Below are positions 7,764-64,000 of a stretch of DNA of 64,000 nucleotides, one piece after another. Location: assembly GCA_964458615.1 (NCBI GenBank), contig CAYWJR010000001.1, positions 24,429-88,428 on the forward strand. Reading direction: 5' to 3'. Within the stretch, counting starts at the first letter, position 1. Each line of letters begins with the position of its first letter. Origin of the DNA: an uncultured Alphaproteobacteria bacterium (GTDB lineage: Bacteria; Pseudomonadota; Alphaproteobacteria; SHNJ01). The notes below the pieces were generated by a model. That model made no database searches. It was not told the DNA's origin and was given only the letters and a program-made list of their open reading frames with translations. A program made the position numbers and the translations under genes.

Positions 7764-7764
7764 C

Positions 7765-9367: not shown

Positions 9368-9402
9368 GACTGCCTAAAACCGCTTTTCACCAGGAGAACG
9401 CC

Positions 9403-10398: not shown

Positions 10399-10424
10399 TA
10401 GGTCAAAAGATTCACAGAATAAAC

Positions 10425-10516
10425 TGGCGGATGGAGCGAGATTCGAACTCGCGAGGGACTTACGCCCCTGCCGGTTTTCAAGACCGGTGCTTTCAACCGC
10501 TCAGCCATCCATCCGC
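10425..10516 (-). tRNA. tRNA-Ser (anticodon TGA), class II tRNA with long variable arm, CCA encoded.
   Basis: Reverse complement reads GCGGATGGATGGCTGAGCGGTTGAAAGCACCGGTCTTGAAAACCGGCAGGGGCGTAAGTCCCTCGCGAGTTCGAATCTCGCTCCATCCGCCA. Acceptor stem pairs, anticodon loop CTTGAAA, T-loop GTTCGAATC. Confidence 0.85.
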
Positions 10517-10674
10517 ATGGTTTATGTGATACCAGACAATGCGGAACGCCGTCTATCCCCGATTTGGGGCTTTGTCACCGATTTTATCAAATATATGGCA
10601 ATATTCCGCTAATCCTTGTATCACTTGGGTTGAAAAATTATAATATGGTATCAATCGTCCTTATGGTGCTTCCT

Positions 10675-11745
10675 ATGTCAAAAAATCCCGTCACCCGCCG
10701 ACCTGCCTTTCATCTGCTTTATCGTGCGTTGTTTATTGCCTGCTTGATCGGTGTATCGGCGCAAAATGCCCGGGCTGACGAAGGCGAATTTTACGCCTGG
10801 CTGAGCAATTTCCGCACCGAAGCGTATAAACAAGGCATCAGCCCCGAAAGCATCAACGATCATTTCGCGGCAATCGAATACGTTCCAGATGTGATAACCA
10901 AAGACCGCAATCAACCGGAATTCAAATTATCGTTCAAAGATTACAAACAAAAAATCGTATCGGCCGAACGTATCGCCACGGGCAAAAAATCTTTGCGCGC
11001 CAACGAAAAATATTTGAACTGGGTGGAACAAAAATCCGGCGTGCCGAAATCGATTGTTGTCGCATTATGGGGCATCGAAACGCGTTTCGGACAGGTTACC
11101 GGCGGTTATGACATCCTAAGCGCGCTGGCGACATTGTCATATGACGGCAGACGGCGCGAATATTTTACCAAGGAATTTATCACCACGTTAAAATTGATGG
11201 ATAAACATCCGTATTTGACAAAACCGTTTATGGGATCATGGGCAGGGGCGATGGGACAATGCCAATTCATGCCCAGCACGTACTGGAATTTTGCGATCGA
11301 CGGCAACAATAATGGCCGCGTGGATTTGTGGAACGAACGCGAAGACGTATTCGCATCCGCCGCGAATTATTTGATGAAATCCGGCTGGAAAAAAGGCGAG
11401 CCATGGGGAACGCCCGTTAAACTAAGCAAGCCGGTGGACATCGAACTGGCGACGCTGAACGTGCAAAAAACCGTCGCGGAATGGGGTAAAATGGGTGTTA
11501 AAACATCCGCCGGCGGCGCTATGCCCAATTCCGGCGCCAAGGCATCGTTGATTATGCCCGATGGCAAAGACGGCCCGGCGTTTTTGGTATACCGCAATTA
11601 CCGCACTATTATGGCATGGAACCGGTCGCATCATTTCGCCATCAGCGTCGGCATGTTGTCCGACCGGATCGGCGGCGTGCAAAAGCATGCGGAACAACAA
11701 CCCGACAAACCATTATCATCCGCTGTTTCGGACGATATTTTATAA
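10675..11745 (+). CDS. mltB: Lytic murein transglycosylase (MltB family).
   Basis: Signal peptide MSKNPVTRRPAFHLLYRALFIACLIGVSAQNARA. Conserved MltB motifs (ALWGIETRFG, GAMGQCQFMPSTY). Start at 10675 preferred over 10564. Confidence 0.8.
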   Translation: MSKNPVTRRPAFHLLYRALFIACLIGVSAQNARADEGEFYAWLSNFRTEAYKQGISPESINDHFAAIEYVPDVITKDRNQPEFKLSFKDYKQKIVSAERIATGKKSLRANEKYLNWVEQKSGVPKSIVVALWGIETRFGQVTGGYDILSALATLSYDGRRREYFTKEFITTLKLMDKHPYLTKPFMGSWAGAMGQCQFMPSTYWNFAIDGNNNGRVDLWNEREDVFASAANYLMKSGWKKGEPWGTPVKLSKPVDIELATLNVQKTVAEWGKMGVKTSAGGAMPNSGAKASLIMPDGKDGPAFLVYRNYRTIMAWNRSHHFAISVGMLSDRIGGVQKHAEQQPDKPLSSAVSDDIL

Positions 11746-11754
11746 TTCGATTTT

Positions 11755-12879
11755 ATGAAACGGTTCATCCGCACCATTTGCGTTTCAATTGGGGTTGCCG
11801 TGGGGCTTTCGGGCTGCGCGGAAACGCAATTTATTACGCATGCCGGTAAAATATGGGGCGACGGTTCGACGCAACAACAAACCGCCGTCAATCCGAACGT
11901 GCAATACAAAGTCGGCAAACCATATCAAATCCAAGGACGTTGGTATTATCCCAAAGAAGATTGGGGTTACAGCGAAGAAGGTTTGGCGTCTTGGTACGGC
12001 GATGAATTTCATGGCCGCAAAACCGCTAATGGCGAATCGTTCGATAAATCCGCATTGACGGCGGCGCACCGCACCTTGCCTATGCCAAGCCTGGTTCGCG
12101 TGACGAATTTGGACAATGGCCGCATTGCGGTTTTGCGGGTCAACGACCGTGGGCCATTCAAAAAAGGCCGGATCATTGATGTCTCTCACGAAGCCGCCAG
12201 GGTGTTGGGATTTGAATCCCAAGGCATGGCGCGCGTGCGGGTTGAATTATTGACCGAAGAAAGCAAACGTTTGGCCATGGCGCACGGCGCCGATTTGCCC
12301 GACGATGTCGTCCAATCGATCCCTCGTTCCGGCGACCCGATTACCATGCAACAAACAAATGGCGGCATGGGCGCACCGCCTGGCGACGGCGATGTAACGG
12401 GGCAGGGATCGTCATTTCAATCTATCCAGACCGTGGAATTAACCCCGCCAGAACCGCTTGCCCCGCAAGGCGCCAAACGCCCACAGCCTTCTTTTACCCC
12501 GCCGCCCGCGCCATACGGTTCGGCGCAATCCCCTGGATTCGGCAACCAAGAATCGGAGCCAAATGTCGGGTTCAGCCGTTCCGATCAAACAAGCGATTTT
12601 GCGCCATCGCGCGCGCAACCCCAGGCCGCAGCGCCTGTCCCCGAAACCCAAGGCAATTTGTACCTGCAAGTCGGGGCATTTTCGAACCAGCAAAATGTGG
12701 AAAGACTGCAAAATCAGTTAAAAAACCTTGGCCAAGTCCAAGTCACCCCATTAGAAAGAAATGGCAGAACGTTGTTTCGCGTCCGCCTGGGGCCGATTTC
12801 CAGTTTCGACCAAGCAACCGTATTGCAATCCCGTGTCGCCGAATTCGGAATACAGGACGCAAAAATTATTTCGGAATAA
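11755..12879 (+). CDS. rlpA: Septal ring lytic transglycosylase RlpA (lipoprotein; DPBB domain plus C-terminal SPOR domain).
   Basis: Lipobox LSGC. DPBB region ([20 protein letters not shown]...RVTNLDNGR...VNDRGP). Pro-rich linker, then a SPOR-like C-terminus ([21 protein letters not shown]...FRVRLGP). Confidence 0.85.
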
Positions 12880-33647: not shown

Positions 33648-36362
33648 ATGAGCAGATCCAGGCTTCCAGCAGCAATCGAAAAAAAAGATTGCGGTTTATT
33701 GCCGCCCCGAATTTTTGATAATTCCGGGATCGTTGCCGTTGTAACAGATTCCGAAAATATAATTACCGATTGCAATCAAGCCGCCACCGATTTTTTCTCG
33801 CAAAATCATAACGACTTAGCAGGGGAAAATTTGCTGGCTCTGATCGACAATGGCGACAGAATATTTATCGAAAGCCTGGCCGCCAAAATAATCGATGGAA
33901 GCAAAAAAAATATCCAGTTAGAAAAACCGGTAATGGTTATATCCGAATCCGGATTCCAGGAAAAATGGATCCGCATCGATTGCAATATTTATGGATCAGA
34001 CAATAAATATCTTATCTATTTAATTCAGGATATTACCGCGCAACAAAAATCCGCAATCAAAGAAAAACAAACGGAAAAGAATCTAAACAATATTTTGTCC
34101 GCCATGGCGGATGGTTTTTTATTATTCGACTCCAACGGCCAATTGTTGGATTTCAGCCCGTCTATACACGATCTGTTTCCGCAAGTGCAGCAAAGCCTGA
34201 TCCCCAAAATGCATATCGCCGAGGTGTATAGCAAAATTATATACTCGCAAAATATAATTGACGCGCTTGATAACGAACAAACTTATTTACAAGAATGGCA
34301 AACCAAACAGATAACCGGGTCGTACAAATTATTTTTCAAACATAAAAATCAGAAAAATTATCTGCTGCAATACCACCAATCTCCGAACCAATCTATTTTA
34401 ACATTTACCGACGTCACGATGATCCGGGAAAAAGAAACGTTGCTGGCCACATTGGCGTCGGAAAATTCGCATTTGTCCAAAGCGGTCGACGCCACCCAGG
34501 TCGGCATCGCCATTTGCGATGCGCGATTGCCGTTAAAACCAATTATATATTTCAACCACGCCTTTCATACAATCGTCGGGCACGCCGCCGAGAAAGTAAT
34601 CGGCGAGAATATCGGTGTTTTATTCAATGCCGAAAGCGACCAAACGGCGATACGGCAAATCGAATCAGCATTGGAAAACAACGCCGTCGCGGACGTTGAA
34701 ACGAAAGCGGTCGACGCAGGCCACCGGACATTTTGGTGCCATATTCAAATCAATCCGATTATCGACGTAACGGGAATTTGCACCCATTTTGTTTTGATGC
34801 TGACCGACATCAGCCGGCGCAAAAATCAAGAACAGGAATTGATTCAGGCAAAGCGCGCCGCCGATGAGGCAAACAAGGCGAAATCCCAATTCCTTGCGAT
34901 TATGAGCCATGAAATCAAAACACCTATCAATGGCGTTATGGGCATGGTCGATTTATTGATGACATCGAATCCAAATGAAAAGCAGCAGCAATTTTTATCC
35001 ACGGCGAAAGAATCAGCCGGAAAATTGCTTGGACTTGTAAACGATATTCTGGATTATTCGGATTTGGAATCGAACCATTTGGCCATAAAACCGAAACCGG
35101 TGGATTTAAACGAATTGATACGCCGGTCATTGGCCGACATCAAAGAAGACGCGTTTAAAAAGAATCTAAGCCTGCAATTTTTGCTGGATCCCAAAATACC
35201 CAAAAAATTGTATGGCGACCCGGATCGTATTGCCCAAATCGTGCGCAATATTGTCGGAAATTCAATTAAATTTACCGAACGCGGCCATATCGAAGTACAT
35301 CTAAATCTGCTTTCGGAAACAAACAAAACGGCAAAATTGCAATTGAAAATCATCGATACAGGAATTGGAATTGCGCCGGACAAACTAAATTCCATTTTCG
35401 ATCCGTTTCACCAAATCGATTTATCGTTTACCAGAAAATACAGCGGCACCGGTCTTGGGCTTGCGATCTGCAAAAAACTGCTACAATTGATGCACGGCGA
35501 CATCAGCGCCAAAAGCACGCTTGGATCAGGCACAACGATCAATTGCACGCTGTCCCTGCCCCTGCACCCGCCGGAACATAGTGTAAATGGAAATTCAGAA
35601 GGCAAAACAACCAATAAAAAGAAAATATTGATTGTCGACGACAGCATGACAAACCGTATGATCCCGGCCAGCTTGCTGCGACCTTATGGATTTGAAATTC
35701 ACGAAGCCGATGGCGGAAAAAAAGCCATCGATCTGGCATCGACCCACGATTACGATTTGATATTGATGGATATTGCCATGCCCGAAATCGACGGCATCGC
35801 GGCGACACGCGCCATTATATCCGCAAAACCTGGGCGCCAGGTAAAAATAATCGCCATTACCGCGCATTCGTCGGAACAGGAAAAAACCAAATGCATTCGC
35901 GCCGGGATGATCGATTATTTAACCAAACCGGTTGATAAAGAAAAGTTATTGGCGGCCTGTTTTAACGTTATGAATATTTCATTTAAAAACGGTGGTGTCA
36001 TGGAAAACAAAAATATGTTGGATGAAACGATATTGCACCAATTGGAAAACGATATTGGCGATAAAACATTGCGAACATTGCTGGATGCGTTTATCGAAGA
36101 AACCGTGGAGCGGTTAAAATTGATCCGCCAATTCAGCCGCGAACAAAAATGGGAATATTTGGGCCGCGAAGGCCACACGTTAAAATCCACCAGTGGCAGT
36201 TTCGGACTTATGACGTTATGCGATAAATCATCGCAATTGGATGAATTGTGCCGCACGCAAAATTACATCCAGGCTGAACTGACCGCGGCGGAAATCGCCA
36301 ATATGGGCGGCGAATGCATCGGAACATTGCGCAAATGGATGGTGGAAAAACTGCCTAATTAA
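33648..36362 (+). CDS. Hybrid sensor histidine kinase/response regulator with PAS domains, HisKA, HATPase, receiver and C-terminal Hpt domain (tripartite ArcB/BarA/TorS-like architecture).
   Basis: H-box LAIMSHEIKTPINGV. G boxes (DTGIGIA, GTGLGLAICKKL). REC (ILIVDDSMTNR...LILMDIAMPEIDG...TKP). Hpt (HTLKSTSGSFG). Confidence 0.85.
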   Translation: MSRSRLPAAIEKKDCGLLPPRIFDNSGIVAVVTDSENIITDCNQAATDFFSQNHNDLAGENLLALIDNGDRIFIESLAAKIIDGSKKNIQLEKPVMVISESGFQEKWIRIDCNIYGSDNKYLIYLIQDITAQQKSAIKEKQTEKNLNNILSAMADGFLLFDSNGQLLDFSPSIHDLFPQVQQSLIPKMHIAEVYSKIIYSQNIIDALDNEQTYLQEWQTKQITGSYKLFFKHKNQKNYLLQYHQSPNQSILTFTDVTMIREKETLLATLASENSHLSKAVDATQVGIAICDARLPLKPIIYFNHAFHTIVGHAAEKVIGENIGVLFNAESDQTAIRQIESALENNAVADVETKAVDAGHRTFWCHIQINPIIDVTGICTHFVLMLTDISRRKNQEQELIQAKRAADEANKAKSQFLAIMSHEIKTPINGVMGMVDLLMTSNPNEKQQQFLSTAKESAGKLLGLVNDILDYSDLESNHLAIKPKPVDLNELIRRSLADIKEDAFKKNLSLQFLLDPKIPKKLYGDPDRIAQIVRNIVGNSIKFTERGHIEVHLNLLSETNKTAKLQLKIIDTGIGIAPDKLNSIFDPFHQIDLSFTRKYSGTGLGLAICKKLLQLMHGDISAKSTLGSGTTINCTLSLPLHPPEHSVNGNSEGKTTNKKKILIVDDSMTNRMIPASLLRPYGFEIHEADGGKKAIDLASTHDYDLILMDIAMPEIDGIAATRAIISAKPGRQVKIIAITAHSSEQEKTKCIRAGMIDYLTKPVDKEKLLAACFNVMNISFKNGGVMENKNMLDETILHQLENDIGDKTLRTLLDAFIEETVERLKLIRQFSREQKWEYLGREGHTLKSTSGSFGLMTLCDKSSQLDELCRTQNYIQAELTAAEIANMGGECIGTLRKWMVEKLPN

Positions 36363-38488
36363 GGCGTTTGAACTATTGTTCGTTCTTTGGGCATGTGGAT
36401 CGTAACCTTGGTTCCTTGATTCAGTCCGCTTTCCAAAATAATCGTGCCGCCGTGCATTTCCACCAGCGATTTGGTAATCGGCAACCCAAGCCCTGTTCCT
36501 TTGTATCTGCGGCTAATTTGGCTGTCGACTTGAATGAACGGCTCCATGGCGCGCGCAATGCTGTCGGGTTCCATGCCCACGCCATGATCCTGTATCGAAA
36601 CCGAAATCCCCATATCTTCGCGCAGCCAAAATTTAATTTCTATGCTGCCGCCGTCGCTGCTGAATTTTACCGCATTCGATACCAAATTGGTGAATATTTG
36701 CGTCATCGCGCGTTCATCCGCGTTCAATTTCGGCAAATTCTGCGGCATATCGATAAACAACTGAATGCCCGCGTTTTGCATTTCAATTTCAACGAAACTT
36801 TGTACCCGCGCCAATATATCGCTTAGAACCAATGGCGTGCTATTCAAATCCAGCTTGCCTTCTTCCATTTTGGACAGATCCAGAATGTCTTTGATCAAAT
36901 TCAACAAATGCTGACCGCTTTTGAAAATATGTTCCGAATATTCGACATATTTCGCATTGCCCAATGCGCCTAAAATTTGCGTTTGCATCGCTTCGGAAAA
37001 ACCCATAATGGCGTTTAACGGCGTGCGCAATTCATGGCTTACATTGGCCAGAAACCGGGATTTCGTCTTACTGGCCATCAACGCCGCATCTTTGGCCGTA
37101 CGCATTTCCTTGACCGCCTTTTCCCGTTTTTGGGTTTCGGAATTGAATTTATCAAGGATCATATTGTATTGCATGGCGATCGTGCCCGCCTCTGTTTCCT
37201 GCTCGACATCGACAGGGCGAGTAAAATCGCCCTCTTGGCGTTGGCGTTCCATTTCCTGCAATAATTTAAACAACGACGTATTCGCGCCATGTTCCGCCAC
37301 GTTTAATCCGATGCGTTCGGATTCGGGGTCGACGCGCAGCGCGAAAAACCGGTCGATTACCGCCAAACAAATGAATCCGACGGTGAAAGAATATGCACCG
37401 ATACTGACGATACCCAAAAATTGTACGCCCAATTGTTCCATGCGGGTAAGGCCGGAATCGAATGCCGTTGTCGGCGCGAATAACGCAACCGCCAACGTAC
37501 CCCAAATCCCCGCGAATAAATGCGCGGGAACGGCATTGATAACATCGTCGATTTGCAATTTTAACAATAATTCGCAGCCCGCATAACACACCATCGCGCC
37601 GATCATGCCGATAATGATCGCTGCATATGGCGTAATAACATGCGCGCATGCCGATATACTAACCAATCCAGCGACAACGCAACTGATCGATCGGATGACG
37701 TTTGGCCGGCCTTTAAAATGCCAAGATAACGCCAATGCGGTCAAACCGCCAATCGCGCCGCCCAATGCCGTATTCAAAATAACCAATGGCACATCGCCGG
37801 TGAATTGGGGCAACGACCCGCCGGTAAATCCGAACCAGCCCACCCACAACAACATCAATCCCAATGTCGCTTTGGGTAAATCGCTGCCTTCGATTTCGGT
37901 GCCTTGCGGGCCGAACCGGCCGATGCGCGGCCCGATAATAATCAATGCCGCCAGCGCCATCCAGCCGCCGACCGAGTGAACCACGGTCGATCCCGCGAAA
38001 TCGATGAATCCCAAACTGACCAGCCAGCCGGAACTGGTATCCGGAATCGACCCCCCCCACGCCCAATGGCCGGCGACGGGATAAATCAATCCTGATAAGA
38101 TGCAGGAACAAAACACATAACCGGTAAAACGGATCCGTTCGGCCACAGCGCCCGAAACGATGGTGGTGGCAATGGCGCAAAACGCCATCTGGAAAAGAAA
38201 GAAAGAATACAGCCACGAAGATGCGGTATCGCCGAATACAAAATAACTTCCGCCTATTATGCCGTTTTGGCTGGCGCCAAACATAATGCCAAACCCAAAC
38301 AGCCAGAATAACAAAGACGCGATACAAAAATCGACGACGTTCTTACCGGCGACATGGATGCTGTTTTTCGCGCGCACCAATCCGCTTTCAAGGCAAGTAA
38401 AACCCGCCTGCATCATGATGACCAGAATGGCGCAGAAAACCAGCCAGAAAATATCGAAATATTCGGATAAACCTTCTACCAAAATCAA
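36359..38488 (-). CDS. Ammonium transporter (Amt) domain fused to a histidine kinase (Amt-HK sensor).
   Basis: N-terminal ~400 aa is a typical Amt/MEP channel (about 11 TM helices; ...DFAGSTVVHSVGGWMALAALIIIGPRIGRF...). This is followed by an H-box (LANVSHELRTPLNAIMGFSE) and an HATPase_c domain (GTGLGLPITKSLVEMHGG). No receiver domain. 4-nt convergent overlap with the hybrid kinase. Confidence 0.8.
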   Translation of the reverse strand: MILVEGLSEYFDIFWLVFCAILVIMMQAGFTCLESGLVRAKNSIHVAGKNVVDFCIASLLFWLFGFGIMFGASQNGIIGGSYFVFGDTASSWLYSFFLFQMAFCAIATTIVSGAVAERIRFTGYVFCSCILSGLIYPVAGHWAWGGSIPDTSSGWLVSLGFIDFAGSTVVHSVGGWMALAALIIIGPRIGRFGPQGTEIEGSDLPKATLGLMLLWVGWFGFTGGSLPQFTGDVPLVILNTALGGAIGGLTALALSWHFKGRPNVIRSISCVVAGLVSISACAHVITPYAAIIIGMIGAMVCYAGCELLLKLQIDDVINAVPAHLFAGIWGTLAVALFAPTTAFDSGLTRMEQLGVQFLGIVSIGAYSFTVGFICLAVIDRFFALRVDPESERIGLNVAEHGANTSLFKLLQEMERQRQEGDFTRPVDVEQETEAGTIAMQYNMILDKFNSETQKREKAVKEMRTAKDAALMASKTKSRFLANVSHELRTPLNAIMGFSEAMQTQILGALGNAKYVEYSEHIFKSGQHLLNLIKDILDLSKMEEGKLDLNSTPLVLSDILARVQSFVEIEMQNAGIQLFIDMPQNLPKLNADERAMTQIFTNLVSNAVKFSSDGGSIEIKFWLREDMGISVSIQDHGVGMEPDSIARAMEPFIQVDSQISRRYKGTGLGLPITKSLVEMHGGTIILESGLNQGTKVTIHMPKERTIVQTP

Positions 38489-54007: not shown

Positions 54008-56113
54008 ATGCTGTCTAAAAAATCGCCATTGCAGCCCATTTTCGCGCCGATTTCCTCGATCAAGGGAATCGGGCCGCGTTATGCCGCACTGTTGGCCAAT
54101 TTAACCGGCCCGCTGATTAGGGATTTATTATGGCACCTGCCCGCAGGCATTATCGACCGCCGCAATCAGCCCAAAATAGCAGAACTTAGTAAATTTCACG
54201 GCCAAACGGTAACGTTGGATGTGCTTGTGGTCAAACACATCAAATCCGGCCGGCGCGGATTGCCGTTCAAGGTGACGGTTCAAGACGCAACCGGAACGAT
54301 GGACATCGTATTTTTCAAAGGCAAAGAGCAATTTTGGCAAAAATCCCTGCCAATCGCGACCCAAAAAATCATCAGCGGCAAGGTCGAATTTTTTAAAAAC
54401 ACCGCGCAAATGGTTCACCCCGATTACATCGGCAACCCGCAAGATGTAAATGCCATTCGCGGGATAGAGGCTGTGTACCCGCTGACCTATGGCGTTACCA
54501 ATAAATTTTTGCGCAAAATGACCGCCATCGCGCTTGGCGTTGTATCGAAAATGCAACCCTGGCCTGATTGGATAGACGCGAATTTGTGTAAAACCCGCAA
54601 TTGGCCGGATTGGGGGGACGCCATGATCGCGGTTCACAATCCCACACAAGAATCCGATTTTTCACCCGCCCAACCGGCGCGGCAACGATTGGCGTATGAC
54701 GAAATATTATCACATCAATTGGCATTAACGTTGGTGCGTAATATTCAGCGCGCAAAACGCACCAATCGCAATATCAAACCGGATTTCACCCTGCGCCGCA
54801 AATTGCTGGATGCATTGCCATTCCAACTAACCGATGCGCAGTTGCAAACATTGGATGAAATCGACGCCGACATGCAATCCAATCAACCGATGTTGCGGTT
54901 ATTACAAGGCGATGTCGGCAGCGGTAAAACCATTGTCGCCATGCTTGCAATGATAAATGCCATCGAATCCGGCGGCCAGGCCGCGATTATGGCGCCAACC
55001 GAAATACTGGCGCGGCAGCACGAACACACAATCCGGCCATTGGCCGAAAAAATCGGCTTGAAAACCGTCACATTGACCGGCCGGGACAAAGGAAAATCCC
55101 GCGCGGAATTGATCCGTCAAATCAAAGACGGCGAAGCCCAAATCGTAATCGGCACGCACGCAATATTAGAAGACAATATCGAATTCCGCCGCCTAGGTTG
55201 CGTTGTTATCGACGAACAACACCGTTTTGGCGTCGAACAACGCCTTGGGTTAATGCACAAAGGCGAAATGGTCGATACATTGGTGATGACCGCAACCCCT
55301 ATTCCACGCAGTCTTTTTCTGGCGCTTTATGGCGATTTGGACACGTCCCGCATTACGCAAAAACCGCCCGGACGGAAACCGATCGATACCCGCACAATCG
55401 CAACCGACCGCATCGACGAAGTGATTGACGGGCTTGCCCGCGCAGTTGCCGAAGGGCGGCAAATTTATTGGGTTTGTCCATTGGTTGCGGAATCCGAAAT
55501 ACTGGATTTAGCCGCAGCCGAAGAACGATACGAAAAATTGAAAAAAATATTCGGGGCAAAAACAGGAATTGTGCATGGCAAAATGAAGGCTGCGGACAAA
55601 GACCGCGTCATGCAATCATTCGCCAAGGATGAAATAAAGATACTGGTATCCACCACAGTCATCGAAGTCGGCGTGAATGTGCCCAACGCCAGCATTATGG
55701 TCATCGACCACGCCGAAAGGTTTGGATTGTCGCAATTGCACCAATTGCGCGGGCGCGTCGGGCGGGGTGAAAAGCAATCCACGTGCCTGTTGTTGTTTTC
55801 AGCCAATTTATCGCAAACCGCCAAATCGCGGTTGGCGATCATGCGGGAAACCGAAGATGGATTCCGTATCGCCGAAGAAGATTTGAAATTGCGCGGCGCC
55901 GGTGAAATTTTAGGCACACGCCAAAGCGGATTGCCCGATTTTAAATTGGCCAATTTTTTCGCGCACCAGGATTTATTTAAAATCGCCCAGGCCGATGTAA
56001 AATTGATTTTGGAAAAAGACCCGCATTTAATGAATTCGCGCGGCCAGTCGTTGCGGATATTGCTGGAATTGTTCAGCCGAGATCAAGCAATTGAATATTT
56101 AGGCAGCGGTTGA
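54008..56113 (+). CDS. recG: ATP-dependent DNA helicase RecG.
   Basis: Wedge domain. Helicase motifs (GDVGSGKTIVA, DEQHRFGV, TATPIPRS) and TRG motif. Confidence 0.95.
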   Translation: MLSKKSPLQPIFAPISSIKGIGPRYAALLANLTGPLIRDLLWHLPAGIIDRRNQPKIAELSKFHGQTVTLDVLVVKHIKSGRRGLPFKVTVQDATGTMDIVFFKGKEQFWQKSLPIATQKIISGKVEFFKNTAQMVHPDYIGNPQDVNAIRGIEAVYPLTYGVTNKFLRKMTAIALGVVSKMQPWPDWIDANLCKTRNWPDWGDAMIAVHNPTQESDFSPAQPARQRLAYDEILSHQLALTLVRNIQRAKRTNRNIKPDFTLRRKLLDALPFQLTDAQLQTLDEIDADMQSNQPMLRLLQGDVGSGKTIVAMLAMINAIESGGQAAIMAPTEILARQHEHTIRPLAEKIGLKTVTLTGRDKGKSRAELIRQIKDGEAQIVIGTHAILEDNIEFRRLGCVVIDEQHRFGVEQRLGLMHKGEMVDTLVMTATPIPRSLFLALYGDLDTSRITQKPPGRKPIDTRTIATDRIDEVIDGLARAVAEGRQIYWVCPLVAESEILDLAAAEERYEKLKKIFGAKTGIVHGKMKAADKDRVMQSFAKDEIKILVSTTVIEVGVNVPNASIMVIDHAERFGLSQLHQLRGRVGRGEKQSTCLLLFSANLSQTAKSRLAIMRETEDGFRIAEEDLKLRGAGEILGTRQSGLPDFKLANFFAHQDLFKIAQADVKLILEKDPHLMNSRGQSLRILLELFSRDQAIEYLGSG

Positions 56114-56740
56114 TTGCGTGTTGTTGCTGATAAGGCCGCTGGACAAAATCAATTTCCACGCGTCTTCGACCGGTAAATCGACATATCTTACATCCGAAGA
56201 CGGGTAATACATCAACAATCCCGCCGTGGGCACGGGCGATAAGGGAACTAAAACCGCCACCATGTCTTTGCCCAAAGATTTTTCAATCGATTTATGAGGG
56301 GTTTCAGATACAAACCCGATAACCCAACTGGTTTTATGCGGATAAGGCACCATCACAACCTGACGGAACGCCTGGGTTTTTTCGCCGAACAGCATTTTCG
56401 CGGTCTGTTTGATTGGCGTATATAATCCGCGAATAATCGGCATCCGGCCCAATATCGCATCGCCAAGCCCAACGAAAAATTGCCCCAAATAATTGGCCGT
56501 AATCGCGCCCAACAAGGTTAACATAACCAATAAAAAAATCAAACCGAATCCGGGGAAATCGGTCGGCAATATCGGGATCAACGGCGCGACTTGTTCATCC
56601 GCGTACCGAATAACCGACCAGGCGATATAAATCGTAACGCCAATCGGCGCCGCCACCAAAACGCCCGCGAAAAAGTAATTCCGCAATTTGCGCCCGGCGC
56701 GGTCCAGCAATCCAATATTCTGCTGTTTATTGTCTGTCAT
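56099..56740 (-). CDS. DUF502-family membrane protein.
   Basis: 213 aa. N-terminal RKLRNYFFAGVLVAAPIGVTIYIAWSV signature and a second TM helix. 15-nt convergent overlap with recG. Confidence 0.65.
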   Translation of the reverse strand: MTDNKQQNIGLLDRAGRKLRNYFFAGVLVAAPIGVTIYIAWSVIRYADEQVAPLIPILPTDFPGFGLIFLLVMLTLLGAITANYLGQFFVGLGDAILGRMPIIRGLYTPIKQTAKMLFGEKTQAFRQVVMVPYPHKTSWVIGFVSETPHKSIEKSLGKDMVAVLVPLSPVPTAGLLMYYPSSDVRYVDLPVEDAWKLILSSGLISNNTQSTAA

Positions 56741-56747: not shown

Positions 56748-58094
56748 TTACCGTTCCGTCAGGGCATTATGTTTTGCTTTGAAAAACGGTTTCAACAAAT
56801 AATCCAAAACCGTTTTCGATCCCGTCAACACGTCCACCTGGGCGGTCATGCCGGGAATAATAGGCAGGCTTTTGGTGTTGCCCTTGAACGTGTTGCCATA
56901 GGTACGCAATTTTACCAGATAAAAACTTTCCCCGCGTTCGTCGACGATAGTATCGGGGGAAATATGTTCTACTTTTGCTTTTAAACCGCCATAAATCGAA
57001 AAATCATAAGCGGTAATTTTCACCATGGCTTCTTGATCCGGGCGGATAAAGGCGATGTCGGATGGGCGGATTTTCGCCTCGACCAGCAAATTATCTTCGA
57101 TCGGAACGACCTCGACCAAATCTTCGCCGGGCTTTATGACGCCGCCGACGGTGTTAATTTTGATTTGTTTAACGGTTCCTTTTAATGGGGAACGCACTTC
57201 GGTTCTGGCCACCCGGTCGCGCGATGCCGTTATGCTTTGGGTCAATGCGTTTAACTCGCCGCGCTTTTGATTCAATTCATTCGATACTTCGGAACGGAAA
57301 GTTTGTTTTTTATCCTCTACCCTTTGGCGCGCTTCTTCCATCGCAACGCGGGCGCGCGGTTGCGCTGCCTTGGCCTGGTTCATGCGCGATTCCAATTCGG
57401 TAATTTCGCGTTCGATGCTTAGCAGTTCCATACGCGATGTAACGCCTTGTTGCACGCCCTTGCTGGCGATTTCTTTTTGTTGATACGCAACATCCAGGGA
57501 TTTTTTGGTGCTCTCGGCGCTGGTGTATAATTCGGACAATTCCTGTTGTTTCTGTGAAACCTGCGATTGGAAAATATCCAACTGGCCGCGCAATTGCGAT
57601 TGGCGCGATTGGTAAAGCGCCATTTCGCTTTTTACCGCATCGGATGCTTCGTCAATAACTTCTTTTGGGAATGCCAATGGCTTGCCTTCGTATTCCGCGT
57701 TCAGGCGCGATATAGTCGCAATCAACGACAAATATTTGCTGCGCGCCGTTTTATAATCCGCCTGCGCATAGGTATTGTCGATGATCAGCATCACTTCGTC
57801 TTTTTCGACCATCTGGCCTTCGCGAACCAGGATTTTGTTGATAATGCCGCCCTCCAGGTTCGATACGACCTGAATATGGCTCGAGGTGATGATTTTCCCC
57901 TGCCCGCGCGTTACTTCGTCGACGCTGGCAAAAGCAGCCCACAGCAAGAACACCACAAAGAATAAACTGATACACAAAAGCAATATATGCGAAGCCATGC
58001 GCGCGCCGCGATGCGATGCCGCGAATCTCTCCGGCATAAAATCGGTTTCTTCTTCGTGCACCCGCAAATATTCTTTGGCAATTTCTTTTAACAT
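56748..58094 (-). CDS. hlyD: Type I secretion system membrane fusion protein (HlyD family).
   Basis: N-terminal TM anchor, long coiled-coil, lipoyl-like and beta-barrel regions typical of HlyD. Immediately downstream of the ABC exporter. Confidence 0.85.
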   Translation of the reverse strand: MLKEIAKEYLRVHEEETDFMPERFAASHRGARMASHILLLCISLFFVVFLLWAAFASVDEVTRGQGKIITSSHIQVVSNLEGGIINKILVREGQMVEKDEVMLIIDNTYAQADYKTARSKYLSLIATISRLNAEYEGKPLAFPKEVIDEASDAVKSEMALYQSRQSQLRGQLDIFQSQVSQKQQELSELYTSAESTKKSLDVAYQQKEIASKGVQQGVTSRMELLSIEREITELESRMNQAKAAQPRARVAMEEARQRVEDKKQTFRSEVSNELNQKRGELNALTQSITASRDRVARTEVRSPLKGTVKQIKINTVGGVIKPGEDLVEVVPIEDNLLVEAKIRPSDIAFIRPDQEAMVKITAYDFSIYGGLKAKVEHISPDTIVDERGESFYLVKLRTYGNTFKGNTKSLPIIPGMTAQVDVLTGSKTVLDYLLKPFFKAKHNALTER

Positions 58095-58116: not shown

Positions 58117-60339
58117 TTAGGTGGACTTTACTTCGCCGTCTTTAAGGGAATTCAAAACTTGGTCGCGCGGCCCGTCGGCAACGACCTTGCCATCGCTCAT
58201 CACAATCAACCGATCGACAATCGATAACATCGATGCGCGGTGTGTGACCACAATGACTGTTTTATCTTTCATAACCTGCGCCAAACGCGCCTTGAAACGA
58301 TTTTCCGAACCGGGATCCATGGAACTGGTCGGTTCATCCAAAACCAAAATCGGCGGATCCAGCAACAAAGAACGCGCCAAGGCAATCGATTGGCGTTGAC
58401 CACCCGAAAGCCCTTCACCGCGCTCGCCGATATTCAAATCATAACCCAACGGATGATGGCGCAGGAAATCGGTAACACCGGCCATTGTTCCCGCGGTCAA
58501 TAACGCGCGGTCATCGGCGCCCGTTCGGCCCATGATGATATTTTCCTTTACCGTGCCGTAAAATAAAAATACGTCCTGCGGGCAAATGCCGATATTACGC
58601 CGTAAATCCGCCGGATCGATTTGGCGAACATCGGTGCCGTCGATCGTTACAGAACCTTCTTGGGGTTCGTACAAAGCCATCATCAATTTTTCAAGCGTGG
58701 TTTTACCCGATCCAATCGGCCCGATAATGCCGACTTTTTCACCCGGTTCGATCCGGAAATTGCATTGGTTCAGCGCCTTTGTCCGTTGGCCTGGATACGC
58801 AAACGTGACGTTACGGAATTCGATTTGGCCGCGCAAATGCGGACGGCTTAGGAATGCTTTGCCAGCCGGGCGTTCGACCGGCAATTGCATAAATTCATCC
58901 AATGTTTCAAGCGCCGATTCGCTTTGGTGAAAACGGGTCAATAATCCGGCGATTTGCCCCAAAGGCGCAGTTGCGCGCCCCGCCAAAATAACCGCCGCGA
59001 TCAGGGCGCCGGTTGTAATCGACCCAGCCGCAACCAAATATGCGCCGACAATAACGATCATGACCGTTACCATGTAGTTGGCAAACACGGTGAAATTCAA
59101 AACCGCCGAAGACAGGCTGTGCGCATGCATGGCGGATTTGGATGTTTTACCGACGAAACTTTCCCATAAACGCTGCATATATCCTTCGGCACCCATCTTT
59201 TTAATCGTTTCAAGGCCGGTAATGGATTCCACAAGCAACGCGCTTTTTTGCGACGATTCACGGAAAGTTTCTTTGACGATGCGATTCAGTGGACGTTGCA
59301 TGTAAAACGCGACGCCCATAATGATCGGAATGGCGATCAACGGAACCAATGCCAGCCATCCGCCGATTAATGCGATTACCAAAATATACAAAAACAAAAA
59401 TGGCAAATCGACCAATGTGACCAATGTGGCCGAAGTATAAAATTCCCGCAAATGTTCGAATTCGCGCAAATGCCCGGCCAATGCGCCGGCCGATGGCGGG
59501 CGCGATTCCATTTTCATGCCCAGCAATTGTTCGAACAGTTTACTGGAAATCAATGTGTCCGCACCGCGTCCGGTTAAATCCAAAAAATATGCGCGCAGCG
59601 ATCGGATAATAAAATCGAAAACAAATACGATCATCACGCCAACCGCCAAAACCCACAACGTTTCCATGGCATTGTTGGGGATAACGCGGTCATACACGTT
59701 CATCGTGAATAATGGTGCCGCCAGCGCGAATAAATTGATCATCAATGCCGCAAAGGCGACTTCGACATACATGCTTTTGAAACGGCGCAAGGTGCCCCAG
59801 AACCAGCCCGCTTTTTCCGGTTCTTCCAAACCTTGTGCGCGCGGGTCGTAACGGAATTCGGGTTTGGCAAAAATGGCGTATCCTGTGAACGAAGATTCCA
59901 AATCGCGCATGGCGATTTGCTGAACCCCGCCGGTTTCAGGCAAAATAATTTCCGCCTTATCGCCGATAACGCCAACATAAACGCATGAACGGCGATCTTT
60001 TAACAACAATATGCACGGCAGCAACATCGGATTAATATCCGGCAAATTGCGCACCATCAGCCGCGCGGAAATACCTGCGCGTTGTGCCGAACGGATAAAC
60101 AACGCGGGCGACATGCCCATTTCCGAAATCGGCAATCCGGCCGCCAACGCCTCGCGCGATTGCGGGCGATCCAGCAATTTACAAATAATATGCAGACAAT
60201 TTAGCAGAACGTCTTCGGCATTGCTGACCGACGGGGTAACGCGCCAAACTTGGCGCGCCGAATCGCCGCTGTCTTTGGATTGATCGGACGGCTGGTTGCC
60301 GGAAAAAGATGGGTCTTTATTTGAATCGCCAGATTGCAC
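58117..60339 (-). CDS. hlyB: Type I secretion system permease/ATPase (HlyB family) with N-terminal C39-like domain.
   Basis: C39-like domain (CLHIICKLLDRP...). Six TM helices. ABC module with Walker A GPIGSGKTT, signature LSGGQRQ, Walker B ILVLDEPTS. Confidence 0.9.
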   Translation of the reverse strand: MQSGDSNKDPSFSGNQPSDQSKDSGDSARQVWRVTPSVSNAEDVLLNCLHIICKLLDRPQSREALAAGLPISEMGMSPALFIRSAQRAGISARLMVRNLPDINPMLLPCILLLKDRRSCVYVGVIGDKAEIILPETGGVQQIAMRDLESSFTGYAIFAKPEFRYDPRAQGLEEPEKAGWFWGTLRRFKSMYVEVAFAALMINLFALAAPLFTMNVYDRVIPNNAMETLWVLAVGVMIVFVFDFIIRSLRAYFLDLTGRGADTLISSKLFEQLLGMKMESRPPSAGALAGHLREFEHLREFYTSATLVTLVDLPFLFLYILVIALIGGWLALVPLIAIPIIMGVAFYMQRPLNRIVKETFRESSQKSALLVESITGLETIKKMGAEGYMQRLWESFVGKTSKSAMHAHSLSSAVLNFTVFANYMVTVMIVIVGAYLVAAGSITTGALIAAVILAGRATAPLGQIAGLLTRFHQSESALETLDEFMQLPVERPAGKAFLSRPHLRGQIEFRNVTFAYPGQRTKALNQCNFRIEPGEKVGIIGPIGSGKTTLEKLMMALYEPQEGSVTIDGTDVRQIDPADLRRNIGICPQDVFLFYGTVKENIIMGRTGADDRALLTAGTMAGVTDFLRHHPLGYDLNIGERGEGLSGGQRQSIALARSLLLDPPILVLDEPTSSMDPGSENRFKARLAQVMKDKTVIVVTHRASMLSIVDRLIVMSDGKVVADGPRDQVLNSLKDGEVKST

Positions 60340-60446: not shown

Positions 60447-60480
60447 CAATACAAAGAAAGAGCACCGCTTTCGCGGTGCT
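60447..60480 (-). terminator. Intrinsic terminator downstream of the RTX gene.
   Basis: Hairpin agcaccgc-tttc-gcggtgct, followed on the minus strand by CTTTCTTTGTATTG. Confidence 0.45.
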
Positions 60481-60508: not shown

Positions 60509-63421
60509 TTACGCAATCACAACATCGTTCATGGTTACGCCGCCGCCCGCAAAGGTGACGTTGTTCAATTGCGCCATATTGACGAAATTCGATCCGTTTG
60601 CCAAACCGTCAATATCGACTTGCATCATGGTAAATCCGCCGCCATCCACAAAACGGACGAAATCCGACAATGGGGTGGTTCCGGAAACATAACCGCTTAA
60701 TACATCTTCCAATCGAATCGTATCCGATCCGGTTTGGAAATCTTGAATGACTTCGGATGCCGAACCTTCGCTGACATCGCGATAAACAAAAGCATCCGCG
60801 CCCGCGCCGCCGACCAAATGATCGTTGCCGGCGCCGCCGTAAATGACATCATTGCCGTTTTCGCCGTACAATCTGTCGTTGCCACTGCCACCGTCAAGAT
60901 TGTCGTTGCCGTCACGCGAGTAAATGACATCGTCTCCGGCGCCACCTAAAATCGTATCGTTGCCTGCGTTGGTGAAAACATAATCGTTGCCATTGCCAGC
61001 ATCGACATCGACGTCGACATTGTATGAAAAACGGCTGCTCAACAAATGCAACACGTCATTGCCGTCGCCAAGATCGAAATGTTCGACGTCTTTGATCAAC
61101 TGTGTATCCAAAATTGACGCATCGATTTGCGGTGTTTCGATACCTGCGATAATAGATACCGCCCGGCCATCAATGATAAACACATCCGCACCGGCGGTTC
61201 CAAGAACCGAATCGTAACCGTCGCCGCCATCGTAAACGTCTTGATATATAATCTTTCCTTGGATAGGCGCGTTGTGCCCATACGAATTTAAAACGTTGCC
61301 AACGGTCGCAGCAGGCGACAACCATGTGCCGTCGCCTTGATCGTTAAAGAACATATCGTTGCCAGCGCCGCCGCGGATAACATCAATACCCAAGCCACCG
61401 GTTAAAATGTCATGGCCATCGCCACCATCGATTAAATCGTTGCCAGTGCCGCCATAAACCAAATCGTCGCCCGCGCCCGAAGAAATAACGTCGCGTCCCG
61501 CGCCGCCATCTATCGAATCATGGCCGTCTTGTGTCCAAATCACGTCGTTGCCGTTGCCCGCATCGACAATAACGTCGTCGAACGAAACCGTCGCACTGCG
61601 CATGTCTAAAATATCGTTGCCATCGCCCAGAACAAATTCTTCGATGCCAAGCAATCTGGATTCACCAGGAACCGGAGATGGATTGACGTTATCATCCGCC
61701 AAAATCCAATCATTGCCGGATGTCGCGGTCAAAGTATCGAAACCGTTGCCGCCCAAATAAATGTCATGCGACATATTCATGGTGGTGTTCACCATGCTGC
61801 GCACGGCATATGCGTCCAACGATGCGATATTTTCAATCGCAGTCGGCAACAACCATGTGCCCGGAGGCGTGATCGAACCCGAATTGGTCCAAACCGCATC
61901 GACACTGTAACGCAACGTATCGTTGCCGTCGCCGCCGAACAATAAATCCACGCCGGTGCCGCCATCCAAAATATCGTTGCCCGCGCCGCCATTGATAATG
62001 TCGTCGCCTGCATTGCCGTTCAATACATCGTCGCCGTCTTCGGCATCGTCGCCGATAATATCGTCGCCGTCGCCGCCGTTAATCACATCATTGCCGGCAT
62101 CGCCGAATAAATAATCGTCGCCGGAATCGCCATCGATATTGTCGTTGCCCAGGCCGCCTTCGATTAAATCGCTGCCTGCGCCGCCGGAAATATTATCGTT
62201 GCCATCGTTACCGGCAATATCGTCGTCGCCGTCGTCGCCGAACAACATATCGTCGCCAGCGCCGCCGAATACAACGTCGTTACCCGAACCGCCACGAATG
62301 GTATCGTTACCATCATTGCCTTCGATGTAATCGTTGCCATCGTCACCGTTAATGGTGTCGTTACCGGCATCGCCGTATAAATTGTCATCGTCCGCGCCGC
62401 CGGAAATATTGTCGTTGCCGTCGCCGCCGGAAATTGTATCCATGCCGCCGTTGCCGGACAATTGATCGTTGCCAGCATCGCCGTCGATTAAATCGTTCAA
62501 GCTGCCGCCAACGACCGTGTCATTGCCAGCGCCTGCGTGGAATGTGAATGTTGGATCAAAACCCGCAGCAGTAGCGGCGGCCAAACTGTCGGCCAAAATT
62601 ACCACGTCATCGCCGTTCAATGCGTCATATTGAGTACCAGCCAAATAAGTACCGGCCACAACGTTATTGAAATTCACCGTGTCGTTTTGCTCCGTAAACA
62701 AGCCGTTTGGTGGCGGCGGCGGAGGTGGCGGCGGAGGTGGCGGCGGCGGAGGTGGCGGCGGTGGCGGCGGCGGAGGTGGTGGTGGCGGTGGCGGAGGTGG
62801 TGGTGGCGGCGGTGGCGGTGGTGGTGGTGCCACATCTCCGGCTTGAGCTACAACCAAAACCGAACGCTCCAATCTGTCGCCTGCTCCCGCAGATCCCAAA
62901 CCGTCGTCTTGTGCCAATCCAATCGCACGAACGCCTGGCAATGTGCCAGCATCTTCAAAACGCGAAAAAGCCGAACCGCTATTTGCTTCGGATCCGCCTT
63001 CTGCTGTTTGGATTAAACCGATTCTGTTCAATAATGCTTCTAAATCTGGGCCGGATATATCGCCGTTATCGGCCAATTTCAAATGCGGAGGATTCGATTC
63101 TTTCGATGTCTTAAAGAAATCGACCAAAACCGTTTCTTTGCCGCTTGCGTCTTTGATGATTAAATTTTGTCCATCAACCGTCATTTTGGAATCCGACAAG
63201 TTGATCTTGCTTAGATCGATATTTTTGTTGGTGTTGGTATCGATTAAGGTTTTTTCAGGAATAGCGGCCAGTTTAGGCGATACTTTTTGTGCGGTATCGA
63301 CAACTTTTTTCGCTTGTTTGTGAGAGGCATCGACAGATTTGTCGGCGACAACTTTGGCTTTTGCAGTGGATTTAACCGCTGATTTTTTGATGCCGGTGTC
63401 GCATTTTGGATCTACAGCCAT
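60509..63421 (-). CDS. Large RTX-type calcium-binding repeat protein (T1SS substrate), 970 aa, with a ~40-residue homopolymeric proline tract.
   Basis: Dozens of GGxGxDxUx nonapeptide repeats (e.g. GGAGNDILDGGTGVDLLFGGDGNDTL) arranged in two duplicated modules. Lys-rich N-terminal region. Pro tract encoded at 62707..62826. C-terminus ...GGGVTMNDVVIA fits an uncleaved T1SS signal. Lies between tolC and hlyB. Confidence 0.85.
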   Translation of the reverse strand: MAVDPKCDTGIKKSAVKSTAKAKVVADKSVDASHKQAKKVVDTAQKVSPKLAAIPEKTLIDTNTNKNIDLSKINLSDSKMTVDGQNLIIKDASGKETVLVDFFKTSKESNPPHLKLADNGDISGPDLEALLNRIGLIQTAEGGSEANSGSAFSRFEDAGTLPGVRAIGLAQDDGLGSAGAGDRLERSVLVVAQAGDVAPPPPPPPPPPPPPPPPPPPPPPPPPPPPPPPPPPPPPPPPNGLFTEQNDTVNFNNVVAGTYLAGTQYDALNGDDVVILADSLAAATAAGFDPTFTFHAGAGNDTVVGGSLNDLIDGDAGNDQLSGNGGMDTISGGDGNDNISGGADDDNLYGDAGNDTINGDDGNDYIEGNDGNDTIRGGSGNDVVFGGAGDDMLFGDDGDDDIAGNDGNDNISGGAGSDLIEGGLGNDNIDGDSGDDYLFGDAGNDVINGGDGDDIIGDDAEDGDDVLNGNAGDDIINGGAGNDILDGGTGVDLLFGGDGNDTLRYSVDAVWTNSGSITPPGTWLLPTAIENIASLDAYAVRSMVNTTMNMSHDIYLGGNGFDTLTATSGNDWILADDNVNPSPVPGESRLLGIEEFVLGDGNDILDMRSATVSFDDVIVDAGNGNDVIWTQDGHDSIDGGAGRDVISSGAGDDLVYGGTGNDLIDGGDGHDILTGGLGIDVIRGGAGNDMFFNDQGDGTWLSPAATVGNVLNSYGHNAPIQGKIIYQDVYDGGDGYDSVLGTAGADVFIIDGRAVSIIAGIETPQIDASILDTQLIKDVEHFDLGDGNDVLHLLSSRFSYNVDVDVDAGNGNDYVFTNAGNDTILGGAGDDVIYSRDGNDNLDGGSGNDRLYGENGNDVIYGGAGNDHLVGGAGADAFVYRDVSEGSASEVIQDFQTGSDTIRLEDVLSGYVSGTTPLSDFVRFVDGGGFTMMQVDIDGLANGSNFVNMAQLNNVTFAGGGVTMNDVVIA
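62707..62826. repeat. 120-bp GGN/CCN trinucleotide simple-sequence repeat encoding the poly-Pro tract.
   Basis: 40 consecutive NGG triplets on the plus strand (ggtggcggcggcggaggt...). The antisense frames give spurious Arg/Trp-rich and Ala/Val-rich ORFs (62537..63016, 62707..63114). Confidence 0.9.
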
Positions 63422-63545
63422 ATTCTACCTCTACCTAGTTCGAACAATTATTAACTTTTTATTTGCATTTATTAATGCTTGTTTAATGATCGTAACTTAA
63501 AAAGAGACGATTTGCAACAAGAAAATTTGTAATTTGTTAATAACT

Positions 63546-63602: not shown

Positions 63603-64000
63603 TTAGTAAGAAGCGACTTTTTGAATCTCTGGAACTTTAACCCCAAGATTGCTGTTCAAAACGCCCATAACCGACATTAACCGGTAAGCGCCGAACAAAG
63701 CCGTATATTCCGCAGTGACCAAATCGCTGCGAGCCAAGAACAATTCGTTTTCCGAATCCAACAAATCCAGCAAGCTGCGTTGACCCAATTCGAATTGTTT
63801 CAGGTACGCATCGCGAACGCGTTCGTTCGCCCCGGTAACGTTACGCAAAGTAACAACCCGTTCCCGCGCCGACGCCATAGCGTTCCAGGCAAAACGGGCT
63901 TGTTCCGATTGAATTCTTTCAACGCGCGATACGACATCGCGGGCGCGCGAACGGCGCAACAATGCGCTTTCTTTGCGCGCATCGTCGGATCCGCCCTTGA
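63603..64000 (-). CDS. tolC: TolC-family outer membrane efflux protein. Only the C-terminal part is in the window; the gene continues past the right edge.
   Basis: C-terminal TolC helices (YLKQFELGQRSLLDLLDSENELFLARSDLVTAEY). The reading frame stays open to the window edge (…KGGSDDARKESALLRRSR…). The 'M' in the track ORF is an internal TTG. Confidence 0.75.
   Translation of the reverse strand, partial: KGGSDDARKESALLRRSRARDVVSRVERIQSEQARFAWNAMASARERVVTLRNVTGANERVRDAYLKQFELGQRSLLDLLDSENELFLARSDLVTAEYTALFGAYRLMSVMGVLNSNLGVKVPEIQKVASY

Follow-up and report, generated by a model that had tools for sequence, protein, structure and literature searches.

Why would a protein that leaves the cell through a type I secretion system carry 40 consecutive prolines? 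This question is raised by an RTX protein gene found at 60509..63421 (whole open reading frame (ORF) including the stop codon, 970 amino acids (aa)) in a 64,000-nucleotide (nt) stretch of DNA from an uncultured freshwater alphaproteobacterium, hereafter called the window, in which coordinates refer to the minus strand unless marked (+). The original prediction, made from the letters of this stretch, had proposed that the prolines are encoded by a slippage-prone contingency locus and form a rod that presents an N-terminal head. Our analysis leads to a different answer: we find it probable that the product is a two-step type I secretion substrate built on the model of the adhesin LapA, which would stay plugged in its export channel and display its beta-roll outside the cell, with the 40 prolines (Pro40) serving as a rigid linker or stalk. 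Orthologous loci and related proteins are referred to below by L and P numbers.

An RTX type I secretion substrate with 40 consecutive prolines

Judged from its repeats, its C-terminal domain and the genes linked to it, the product belongs among the RTX substrates of type I secretion. The HemolysinCabind family (PF00353) matched over 13 stretches of the protein (248.9 bits), 30 matches to the GGxGxD-type RTX repeat motif were counted, and TIGR03661 (T1SS_VCA0849) matched aa 891-962 with 34.7 bits (cutoff 17.6), inside a C-terminal type I secretion target domain of the VCA0849/CraA class (aa 891-970; 60512..60751) that ends in ...NDVVIA, a VVIA-type end as predicted. RTX nonapeptide beta-roll blocks and two homologous non-canonical inserts occupy aa 314-890 (60752..62482), and the two duplicated RTX blocks that had been noticed beforehand were borne out by an internal duplication of aa ~520-690 against aa ~697-876 (score 306; shuffles 55 +/- 9). 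At the other end of the protein, a Lys/Ala-rich low-complexity tail (aa 1-55; 63257..63421) contains 12 of the 23 lysines, compared with 11 in the other 915 aa, and the earlier description of a 970-aa RTX type-I-secreted protein with a Lys-rich N-terminus thus agrees with the ORF, with both domain models and with the lysine counts. This tail includes the conserved motif DKCDTGI (aa 3-9; 63395..63415), which holds the only Cys of the substrate and is kept in the window, L001 and L011 orthologues; it is not found in P0122 or P0123.

The longest proline run of the substrate spans exactly 40 residues (aa 199-238), in keeping with the approximate number given beforehand, and its 40 codons lie at 62708..62827, one base away from the predicted 62707..62826. 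Since no run among the 33 other ORFs of the window exceeds 3 prolines, chance can be excluded for Pro40. Two ORFs on the opposite strand over the tract, 62537..63016 (Trp/Arg-rich) and 62707..63114 (Ala/Val/Glu-rich), were considered and rejected as shadows of the main frame. Beyond the window, none of the other 138 related proteins that we inspected has a run of at least 8 prolines, except the truncated orthologue P0001, and in a search of the literature no RTX adhesin or type I secretion adhesin turned up for which a polyproline tract or spacer has been described. A run of this length greatly exceeds what bacteria usually have; by comparison, a recent review terms a 20-proline construct 'artificially long' and gives four as the longest run in B. 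subtilis (PMC12856214).

In the tract, CCG is used 18 times, CCA 17 times, CCT 5 times and CCC never, as compared to 21% of CCC among the Pro codons of the 33 other window genes (P = 7e-5), and no C run in the tract is longer than 2. Among Pro codons, CCG and CCA are decoded faster, while CCC and CCU are slow and frameshift-prone (PMC12856214). The codons of the tract thus appear to have been chosen against frameshift-prone, slowly decoded CCC, and the avoidance of CCC together with the bias to CCG and CCA suggests a selection that eases translation instead of impeding it. Consecutive prolines stall ribosomes and need elongation factor P (EF-P) (PMC12856214), and we may reasonably infer that translation of Pro40 is EF-P-dependent; a tblastn search with an approximate E. 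coli EF-P query gave no efp match in the 64-kb window, which is too small to be informative on this point. Finally, exact 20-26 nt repeats occur in the tract DNA at periods of 12-27 nt, and since its exact period-3 runs stop at 8 nt, it is not a pure trinucleotide microsatellite, which corrects the earlier description.

Independent assemblies carry the tract at the same junction

Syntenic loci from uncultured Alphaproteobacteria were recovered by scanning genome assemblies for the ATP-binding cassette (ABC) transporter and by homologue look-ups. One of them, L011, is a 230-kb contig with the whole locus, and its 989-aa orthologue, from a related species, has the same architecture as the window protein, with an identity to it of 62% over the N-terminal part and of 66.5% over the C-terminal part. 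The L011 orthologue has exactly 40 prolines at the same junction, while the two proteins differ in how many RTX repeats they have and in how long their Lys-rich tail is. At the DNA level, third codon positions of the two tracts agree, position by position, no better than expected by chance, and a 44-nt block that is identical in both is displaced by 30 nt, coming later in the window tract than in that of L011, with both tracts totalling 120 nt. This shift indicates that codons were gained and lost on both sides of the block.

Other assemblies carry parts of the tract. The L002 contig starts inside it, with at least 30 Pro codons at the same junction (L002 1..92), and L011 and L002, although close relatives, have very different internal orders of codons. 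In the L001 contig, 10 Pro codons are followed by ~60 nt of unrelated sequence that includes a stop, up to the contig end (10558..10643), which is probably chimeric, and the L012 contig ends ~20 codons short of the expected tract (10500..10554). An in-frame Pro run is therefore present at the same junction in four independent assemblies (window, L011, L002 and L001), with both flanks conserved in the two complete copies (window and L011), and because independent assemblies share it at that place, we consider that the tract is real and conserved in the clade. The tract is evolving by slippage-like turnover, which is the part of the earlier microsatellite proposal that holds, and its equal length despite codon turnover points to selection on tract length and not to a hypervariable contingency locus. 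In other words, tract length appears to be under stabilising selection, as expected from a ruler.

The tract also defeats short-read assemblers, as seen from the contigs that break at or near it in L001, L002 and perhaps L012. In L011 (SHNJ01000007.1), where the intact orthologue ORF is 9296..12265, the deposited annotation begins at a GTG located after the tract (P0002, 754 aa) and also includes a spurious 119-aa poly-Gly ORF that crosses the tract on the other strand. Because gene callers fail at such tracts, the N-terminal modules are hidden from protein databases. When searching for the window allele, we found its adaptor protein only on contigs of at most 6.3 kb that stop short of the tract; neither its 970-aa product nor its post-tract-GTG product has a database record, and a metagenome scan with the N-terminal profile returned the L001 contig only.

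The N-terminal part resembles a retention module and carries a variant LapG motif

Word-indexed searches using the N-terminal 198 aa or a 6-sequence profile matched only P0001 and P0122, and an exhaustive HMMER profile search with the N-terminal part found 19 relatives. Out of 10 aligned N-termini of this family, nine match BapA_N (PF22783; best E-value (E) 2e-8) and seven match NF033677. The N-terminal part is most likely a distant relative of BapA-prefix and LapA-type retention modules, reached through intermediate sequences. Searches of PDB sequences with the N-terminal module, as a single sequence and as a profile, gave nothing meaningful, and fold searches gave weak similarity to RTX/beta-roll capping structures only.

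The proteins P0127, P0128, P0137 and P0131 read EEFDPSQVAPAAG or DISTAAG at the position aligned to the TAEG of the window protein (aa 139-142; 62996..63007). The published LapG recognition pattern is a helix, then DP, then [T/A/P]AAG (PMC13090378), so that TAEG can be described as a variant of this motif and a putative cleavage site. It is invariant in six members of the subfamily, and P0030 has PAEG.

In an AlphaFold2 (AF2) model of aa 45-198, seven beta strands precede a helix that spans aa 124-133, with a predicted local distance difference test (pLDDT) of 76-86, and the chain is disordered from TAEG on (pLDDT of 40-51 for aa 143-198). The beta-strand module (aa 56-123; 63053..63256), a distant homologue of BapA-prefix and retention modules, is a putative periplasmic plug; the predicted helix, PDLEALLNRI (63023..63052), stands at the position of the LapG 'targeting helix'; and the Gly/Ala/Ser/Asp-rich segment that follows the motif (aa 143-198; 62828..62995), with its predicted disorder, is a candidate channel-spanning segment that leads into Pro40, a putative rigid polyproline-II spacer. 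This modelled order of beta module, helix, motif and disorder matches the published anatomy of retention modules, in which a retention domain, a targeting helix, the site and an unstructured conduit-spanning segment follow one another (PMC13090378), the linker of LapA being a polyG (PMC10990149). Both the model and the homology thus describe a retention-like module where a displayed N-terminal head had been proposed, and the likely topology is reversed, with the rod presenting the C-terminal beta-roll.

Two relatives differ from the window protein at the place of the tract. P0123 (1288 aa) has the same module with IGALQTAEG and keeps the rest of the architecture without a Pro tract, while P0136, an independent relative, reads IKTAEG and then has, where the tract would stand, 45 aa rich in Pro, Ile, Ala and Val. 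This non-homopolymeric Pro-rich spacer of similar length and place points to a structural role.

Export genes flank the substrate gene, and orthologous loci add a LapG-like protease gene

Genes for the three components of a type I secretion system surround the substrate gene on one strand: an LssB-type ABC transporter with a C39-like domain (58117..60339; TIGR03375, 959 bits, cutoff 693), a membrane-fusion protein corresponding to an HlyD-family periplasmic adaptor (56748..58094; TIGR01843, 399.5 bits) and a TolC-family outer-membrane channel, of which the window holds the 3' end, cut by the window end (63603..64000; TIGR01844, E 2e-22). This TolC-like fragment is 84.6% identical to the L011 TolC-like protein.

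The gene directly upstream of the TolC-like gene encodes a LapG-like Peptidase_C93 in L001, L011, L012 and the more distant L015/L016. The L011 protein matches solved LapG structures (4FGO, E 9e-18; 4U65_E, E 1.2e-14), and its Cys (in GDCEDFAI), His and Asp align with the triad of these structures. The substrates found at loci with a LapG-like protease all carry TAEG or PAEG. In L015/L016, genes for a LapG-like protease, a TolC-like channel, a flagellin, an RTX substrate (retention module, PAEG), LssB and HlyD follow one another over 4024..10652, the flagellin gene being located between the channel and substrate genes.

A conserved cap and an all-beta-roll region follow the tract

The AF2 model of aa 239-970 (mean pLDDT 83.4; predicted template modelling score 0.79) consists of beta-roll blocks and a C-terminal sandwich. 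Foldseek searches with this C-terminal model returned RTX structures only (the CyaA RTX domain with E 1.6e-9, serralysins and lipases), with weak matches to RsaA (E 1.8e-4, template modelling (TM) score ~0.2) and to the M. primoryensis ice-binding region. Using Pfam and AF2/Foldseek, we found no enzymatic or known adhesin domain in the substrate, and the part located after the tract is all beta-roll.

Directly after the tract stands the N-terminal cap module of the beta-roll (NGLFTEQNDTVNFNNV...; aa 239-313; 62483..62707), which is conserved in L002, L011, P0123, P0136, P0030 and P0012. Pro-rich sequence precedes this cap elsewhere too (PPPPP in P0012, TFNP in P0030 and LKP in P0123), and a short Pro stretch before the cap may be ancestral and may have grown to 40 in the clade of the window. 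P0012 has the cap 'LFxxGNDxxDFAQV...' twice (aa 36-95 and 292-350), directly after PQPPQP and PPPPP, respectively. The spacing between site and cap is 98 residues in the window protein, 97 in L011 and 102 in P0136, as compared to 53 in P0123 and 62 in P0030. Since these last relatives have 53-62 residues there, ~55-60 flexible residues seem to be enough for a TolC-type duct of ~14 nm.

Expression signals and genomic context

Five genes follow one another on the same strand, in the order TolC-like channel, RTX substrate, LssB-type ABC transporter, HlyD adaptor and DUF502. A terminator hairpin lies between the TolC-like gene and the substrate gene, ahead of a promoter-like element, and a second terminator-like hairpin (60461..60480) is located between the substrate and ABC transporter genes. 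The conserved block upstream of the substrate gene is best read as a promoter: its TTGCAA-17 nt-TACGAT element (63489..63517), too weak for a consensus promoter scan, is near-invariant in five orthologous loci, and the Shine-Dalgarno-like AGGTAGAGG (63428..63436) is invariant across five loci. Both elements are kept in five loci, one of them being L013 with its different upstream gene, and the substrate gene thus has conserved expression signals of its own. No riboswitch or other RNA element from Rfam was found near the substrate gene; the sole Rfam match in the window is one transfer RNA (tRNA) gene at 10428..10514.

The DUF502 gene (56099..56740) encodes a membrane protein with two transmembrane helices and begins 8 nt past the adaptor gene in the window, this distance being 2-8 nt in the window, L002, L011 and L013. 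The corresponding genes lie at 6127..6768 in L002, 16023..16655 in L011, 17832..18503 in L013 and 16729..17406 in L015, a distant fifth locus where DUF502 is located two genes further on from the adaptor. DUF502 is a recurrent, apparently co-transcribed partner of the secretion system, although its membership of the system is uncertain; none of these five loci has a LapD, and a literature search found no report on its function. Genes for RecG and Mfd follow downstream of DUF502. Elsewhere, the window has housekeeping genes that are ordinary for Alphaproteobacteria, among them those for NtrYX, HflX, the pyruvate dehydrogenase complex and methionyl-tRNA synthetase (MetRS). It also encodes a 709-aa fusion of an ammonium-transporter domain with a histidine kinase (36359..38488; Ammonium_transp + HisKA + HATPase_c), tail to tail with a PAS-kinase-receiver-Hpt hybrid sensor (33648..36362 (+)), the 3' ends of the two genes overlapping by a few bases.

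Discussion

In type I secretion, it is the C-terminus of the substrate that leaves the cell first. In the mechanism that we propose, the products of the surrounding genes (LssB-type ABC transporter, HlyD adaptor and TolC-like channel) would export the substrate in this orientation, and its C-terminal ~730 residues would form a long RTX beta-roll once outside and supplied with Ca2+. The N-terminal beta module (aa ~56-123) would fold before export ends and would then be unable to pass through the channel, which would tether the protein to the cell surface until a LapG-like periplasmic cysteine protease releases it by cutting at TAEG, behind the plug and the helix. Plug and beta-roll would be joined by the ~56-residue disordered segment and by Pro40. 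A polyproline-II helix rises by 3.1 A per residue, which gives ~12.4 nm for Pro40, and such a thin, non-folding rod could either line the ~14 nm duct or, more likely, lift the beta-roll beyond the lipopolysaccharide layer. We favour this stalk over a lining of the duct because relatives manage with 53-62 residues there.

Several observations weigh against this scheme. The window protein itself falls below the BapA_N threshold (E 0.0076; 16.4 bits versus a cutoff of 27), and the NCBIfam model of LapA-type retention modules matched no family member at E <= 1. The site of the window protein reads I-Q-T-A-E-G, with A-E replacing the di-alanine and I-Q replacing DP, changes that weaken the case for cleavage by a LapG-like protease. 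The window ends within the TolC-like gene, and the protease gene would lie outside it, its presence being deduced from synteny. No LapD-type cyclic di-GMP receptor was found within 7-10 kb in L001, L011, L012, L013 and L015, nor downstream in the window, and the P0123 locus has no adjacent LapG or TolC gene. In addition, since P0123 has the module and TAEG without the tract, the tract is an add-on that is not essential to the family. Lastly, the length conservation is that of two complete tracts (window and L011); alleles of greater or mixed length may be hidden in the assemblies broken at this place, hence an ascertainment bias.

The comparison with known systems goes in both directions. LapA of Pseudomonas fluorescens, which works with LapBCE, LapG and LapD, is type I secreted like our substrate, with RTX repeats and a C-terminal secretion domain, and has its parts in the same order (N-terminal beta-rich module, helix, short conserved motif and unstructured linker); moreover, a gene for a protease of the BTLCP/LapG family is linked to the TolC-like gene in the loci orthologous to the window. 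By contrast with LapA (~5000 aa), the window protein has 970 aa and lacks tandem extender repeats and adhesion domains, reads TAEG instead of TAAG with no DP, has no LapD nearby, adds a Pro40 rod where LapA has a polyglycine linker, and has an N-terminal module that is detectable only through intermediate sequences. Because it has no di-alanine or DP, no LapD nearby and no giant repeat architecture, we regard the window protein as a variant of the Lap type and not as a member.

Its C-terminal secretion domain (TIGR03661) belongs to the VCA0849 class, and VCA0849 is CraA, a LapG-regulated adhesin of Vibrio cholerae (PMC6890996). CraA and FrhA are LapG substrates with retention modules, in which the first position of the motif is variable (PAAG, AAAG) (PMC6890996); unlike the window protein, they have an intact di-alanine and are large multi-repeat proteins, and their adhesin genes are unlinked to lapG. 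The DvhA/DvhG/DvhD system of Desulfovibrio vulgaris provides a precedent for a Lap-like system beyond the Gammaproteobacteria in which LapG is divergent and LapD is not recognisable (PMC10990149, PMC13090378), although DvhA keeps an AA site, has 3038 aa with von Willebrand factor (vWF) and beta-repeat domains, and has its regulator DvhD in the operon. BapA-prefix adhesins (PF22783/NF033677) share the N-terminal module family through transitive profile matches but differ by their long Ig-like repeat arrays, and the 139 related proteins that we inspected gave no homopolymeric proline spacer apart from the truncated P0001. RsaA, the S-layer protein of Caulobacter crescentus, is likewise alphaproteobacterial, Ca2+-dependent, beta-rich, type I exported and held at the surface via its N-terminal part; its anchoring is however non-covalent, through O-antigen, and it forms a lattice, with no retention-module/protease logic and no Pro tract. 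For the rod itself, a parallel is offered by TonB, in which a rigid Pro-rich, polyproline-II-like segment of ~10 nm sets a distance across an envelope compartment. TonB is not a type I secretion substrate, and its (Glu-Pro)n(Lys-Pro)m spacer spans the periplasm from an inner-membrane anchor, whereas the spacer of the window protein is homopolymeric and part of a type I secretion substrate; both are rigid Pro spacers in envelope proteins.

How else could the tract be explained? The contingency-locus proposal would make the protein a freely secreted RTX exoprotein and the tract a slipped-strand spacer of variable length presenting an N-terminal head. Slippage or turnover does occur, as seen from the higher-order 12-27 nt repeats and from the different codon order of the close relatives L011 and L002, and contig breaks at the tract (L001, L002 and perhaps L012) are compatible with heterogeneity in the populations, but both complete tracts have exactly 40 prolines despite ~35% protein divergence and changes by triplets stay in frame, which leaves no on/off switching. 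Perfect period-3 runs of at most 8 nt and the avoidance of CCC and C runs argue in the same direction, the tract being no long perfect repeat that alters a frame or a promoter spacing, as is characteristic of phase-variable loci; and the N-terminal module resembles a periplasmic plug more than a displayed head. We thus consider this proposal unlikely and depart here from the original prediction. The same breaks of short-read assemblies at the tract, together with the stop that comes soon after the 10 Pro codons of L001, could also be put down to misassembly, the tract being then an artefact or a collapsed repeat and the true gene interrupted or different, an eventuality that the original prediction had itself envisaged. 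With four independent assemblies carrying an in-frame Pro run and conserved flanks in both complete copies, we give hardly any credit to this explanation.

Two further explanations turn to what polyproline can do in other contexts. Runs of at least 10 prolines bind profilin, and the tract could mimic a eukaryotic ligand, recruiting profilin or SH3, WW and EVH1 proteins of a host or grazer as do formin FH1, BimA and ActA; the only non-RTX match of the tract in NCBIfam is indeed the BimA proline-rich region (E 1e-4), a low-complexity match. However, cytoskeleton mimics combine a Pro-rich motif with an actin, WH2 or host-interaction module, while the window protein has no WH2, actin-binding or eukaryote-like module and consists, outside the tract, of only the retention module or beta-roll. 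In addition, P0123 (L013) comes from a freshwater metagenome and the metagenome assemblies of other relatives have no recorded host association, neighbouring genes are ordinary housekeeping genes, and the tract-less P0123 keeps the remaining architecture, all of which makes ligand mimicry very improbable in our eyes. Alternatively, the tract could act mainly on translation, as an extreme stall, relieved by EF-P, that throttles the production of the surface protein or ties it to the translational state of the cell, with a secondary structural role. Consecutive prolines do stall ribosomes and need EF-P (PMC12856214) and the tract comes early in the ORF, but three to five prolines suffice to stall, which leaves a conserved 40 unexplained; the codon bias to the faster CCG and CCA, away from CCC, is the opposite of what a throttle calls for, and the Pro-rich, non-homopolymeric spacer of similar length in P0136 speaks for structure. 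We see this as a decidedly improbable main function, and retain the plugged, LapA-like substrate with a Pro40 stalk as the probable one.

The observations can also be joined into a bolder reading, which we put forward only tentatively and consider rather doubtful as a whole. Pro40 would be a ruler selected for its length (12.4 nm, exactly 40 residues despite slippage turnover), which sets the distance between plug and beta-roll to that of the TolC duct or of the lipopolysaccharide layer. The specificity of the LapG-like protease would have shifted from Ala|Ala to Ala|Glu, and the co-operonic DUF502 protein may regulate this protease in the place of LapD. If true, this reading would define a previously undescribed, LapD-less branch of Lap-type surface tethering.

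Whatever its role, a natural Pro40 is an extreme case for bacterial translation and a ready natural substrate on which EF-P and its backup factors can be tested under physiological conditions. Because such tracts break assemblies and gene calls, proteins that carry them are under-counted in databases. With a conserved TAEG beside them, these LapG-like proteases may form a specificity class that has so far gone unrecognised. With its 970 aa, the window protein would be a minimal and tractable relative of the giant Lap adhesins, and a rod of defined length at the channel would make the geometry of plugging and display testable by changing the number of prolines.

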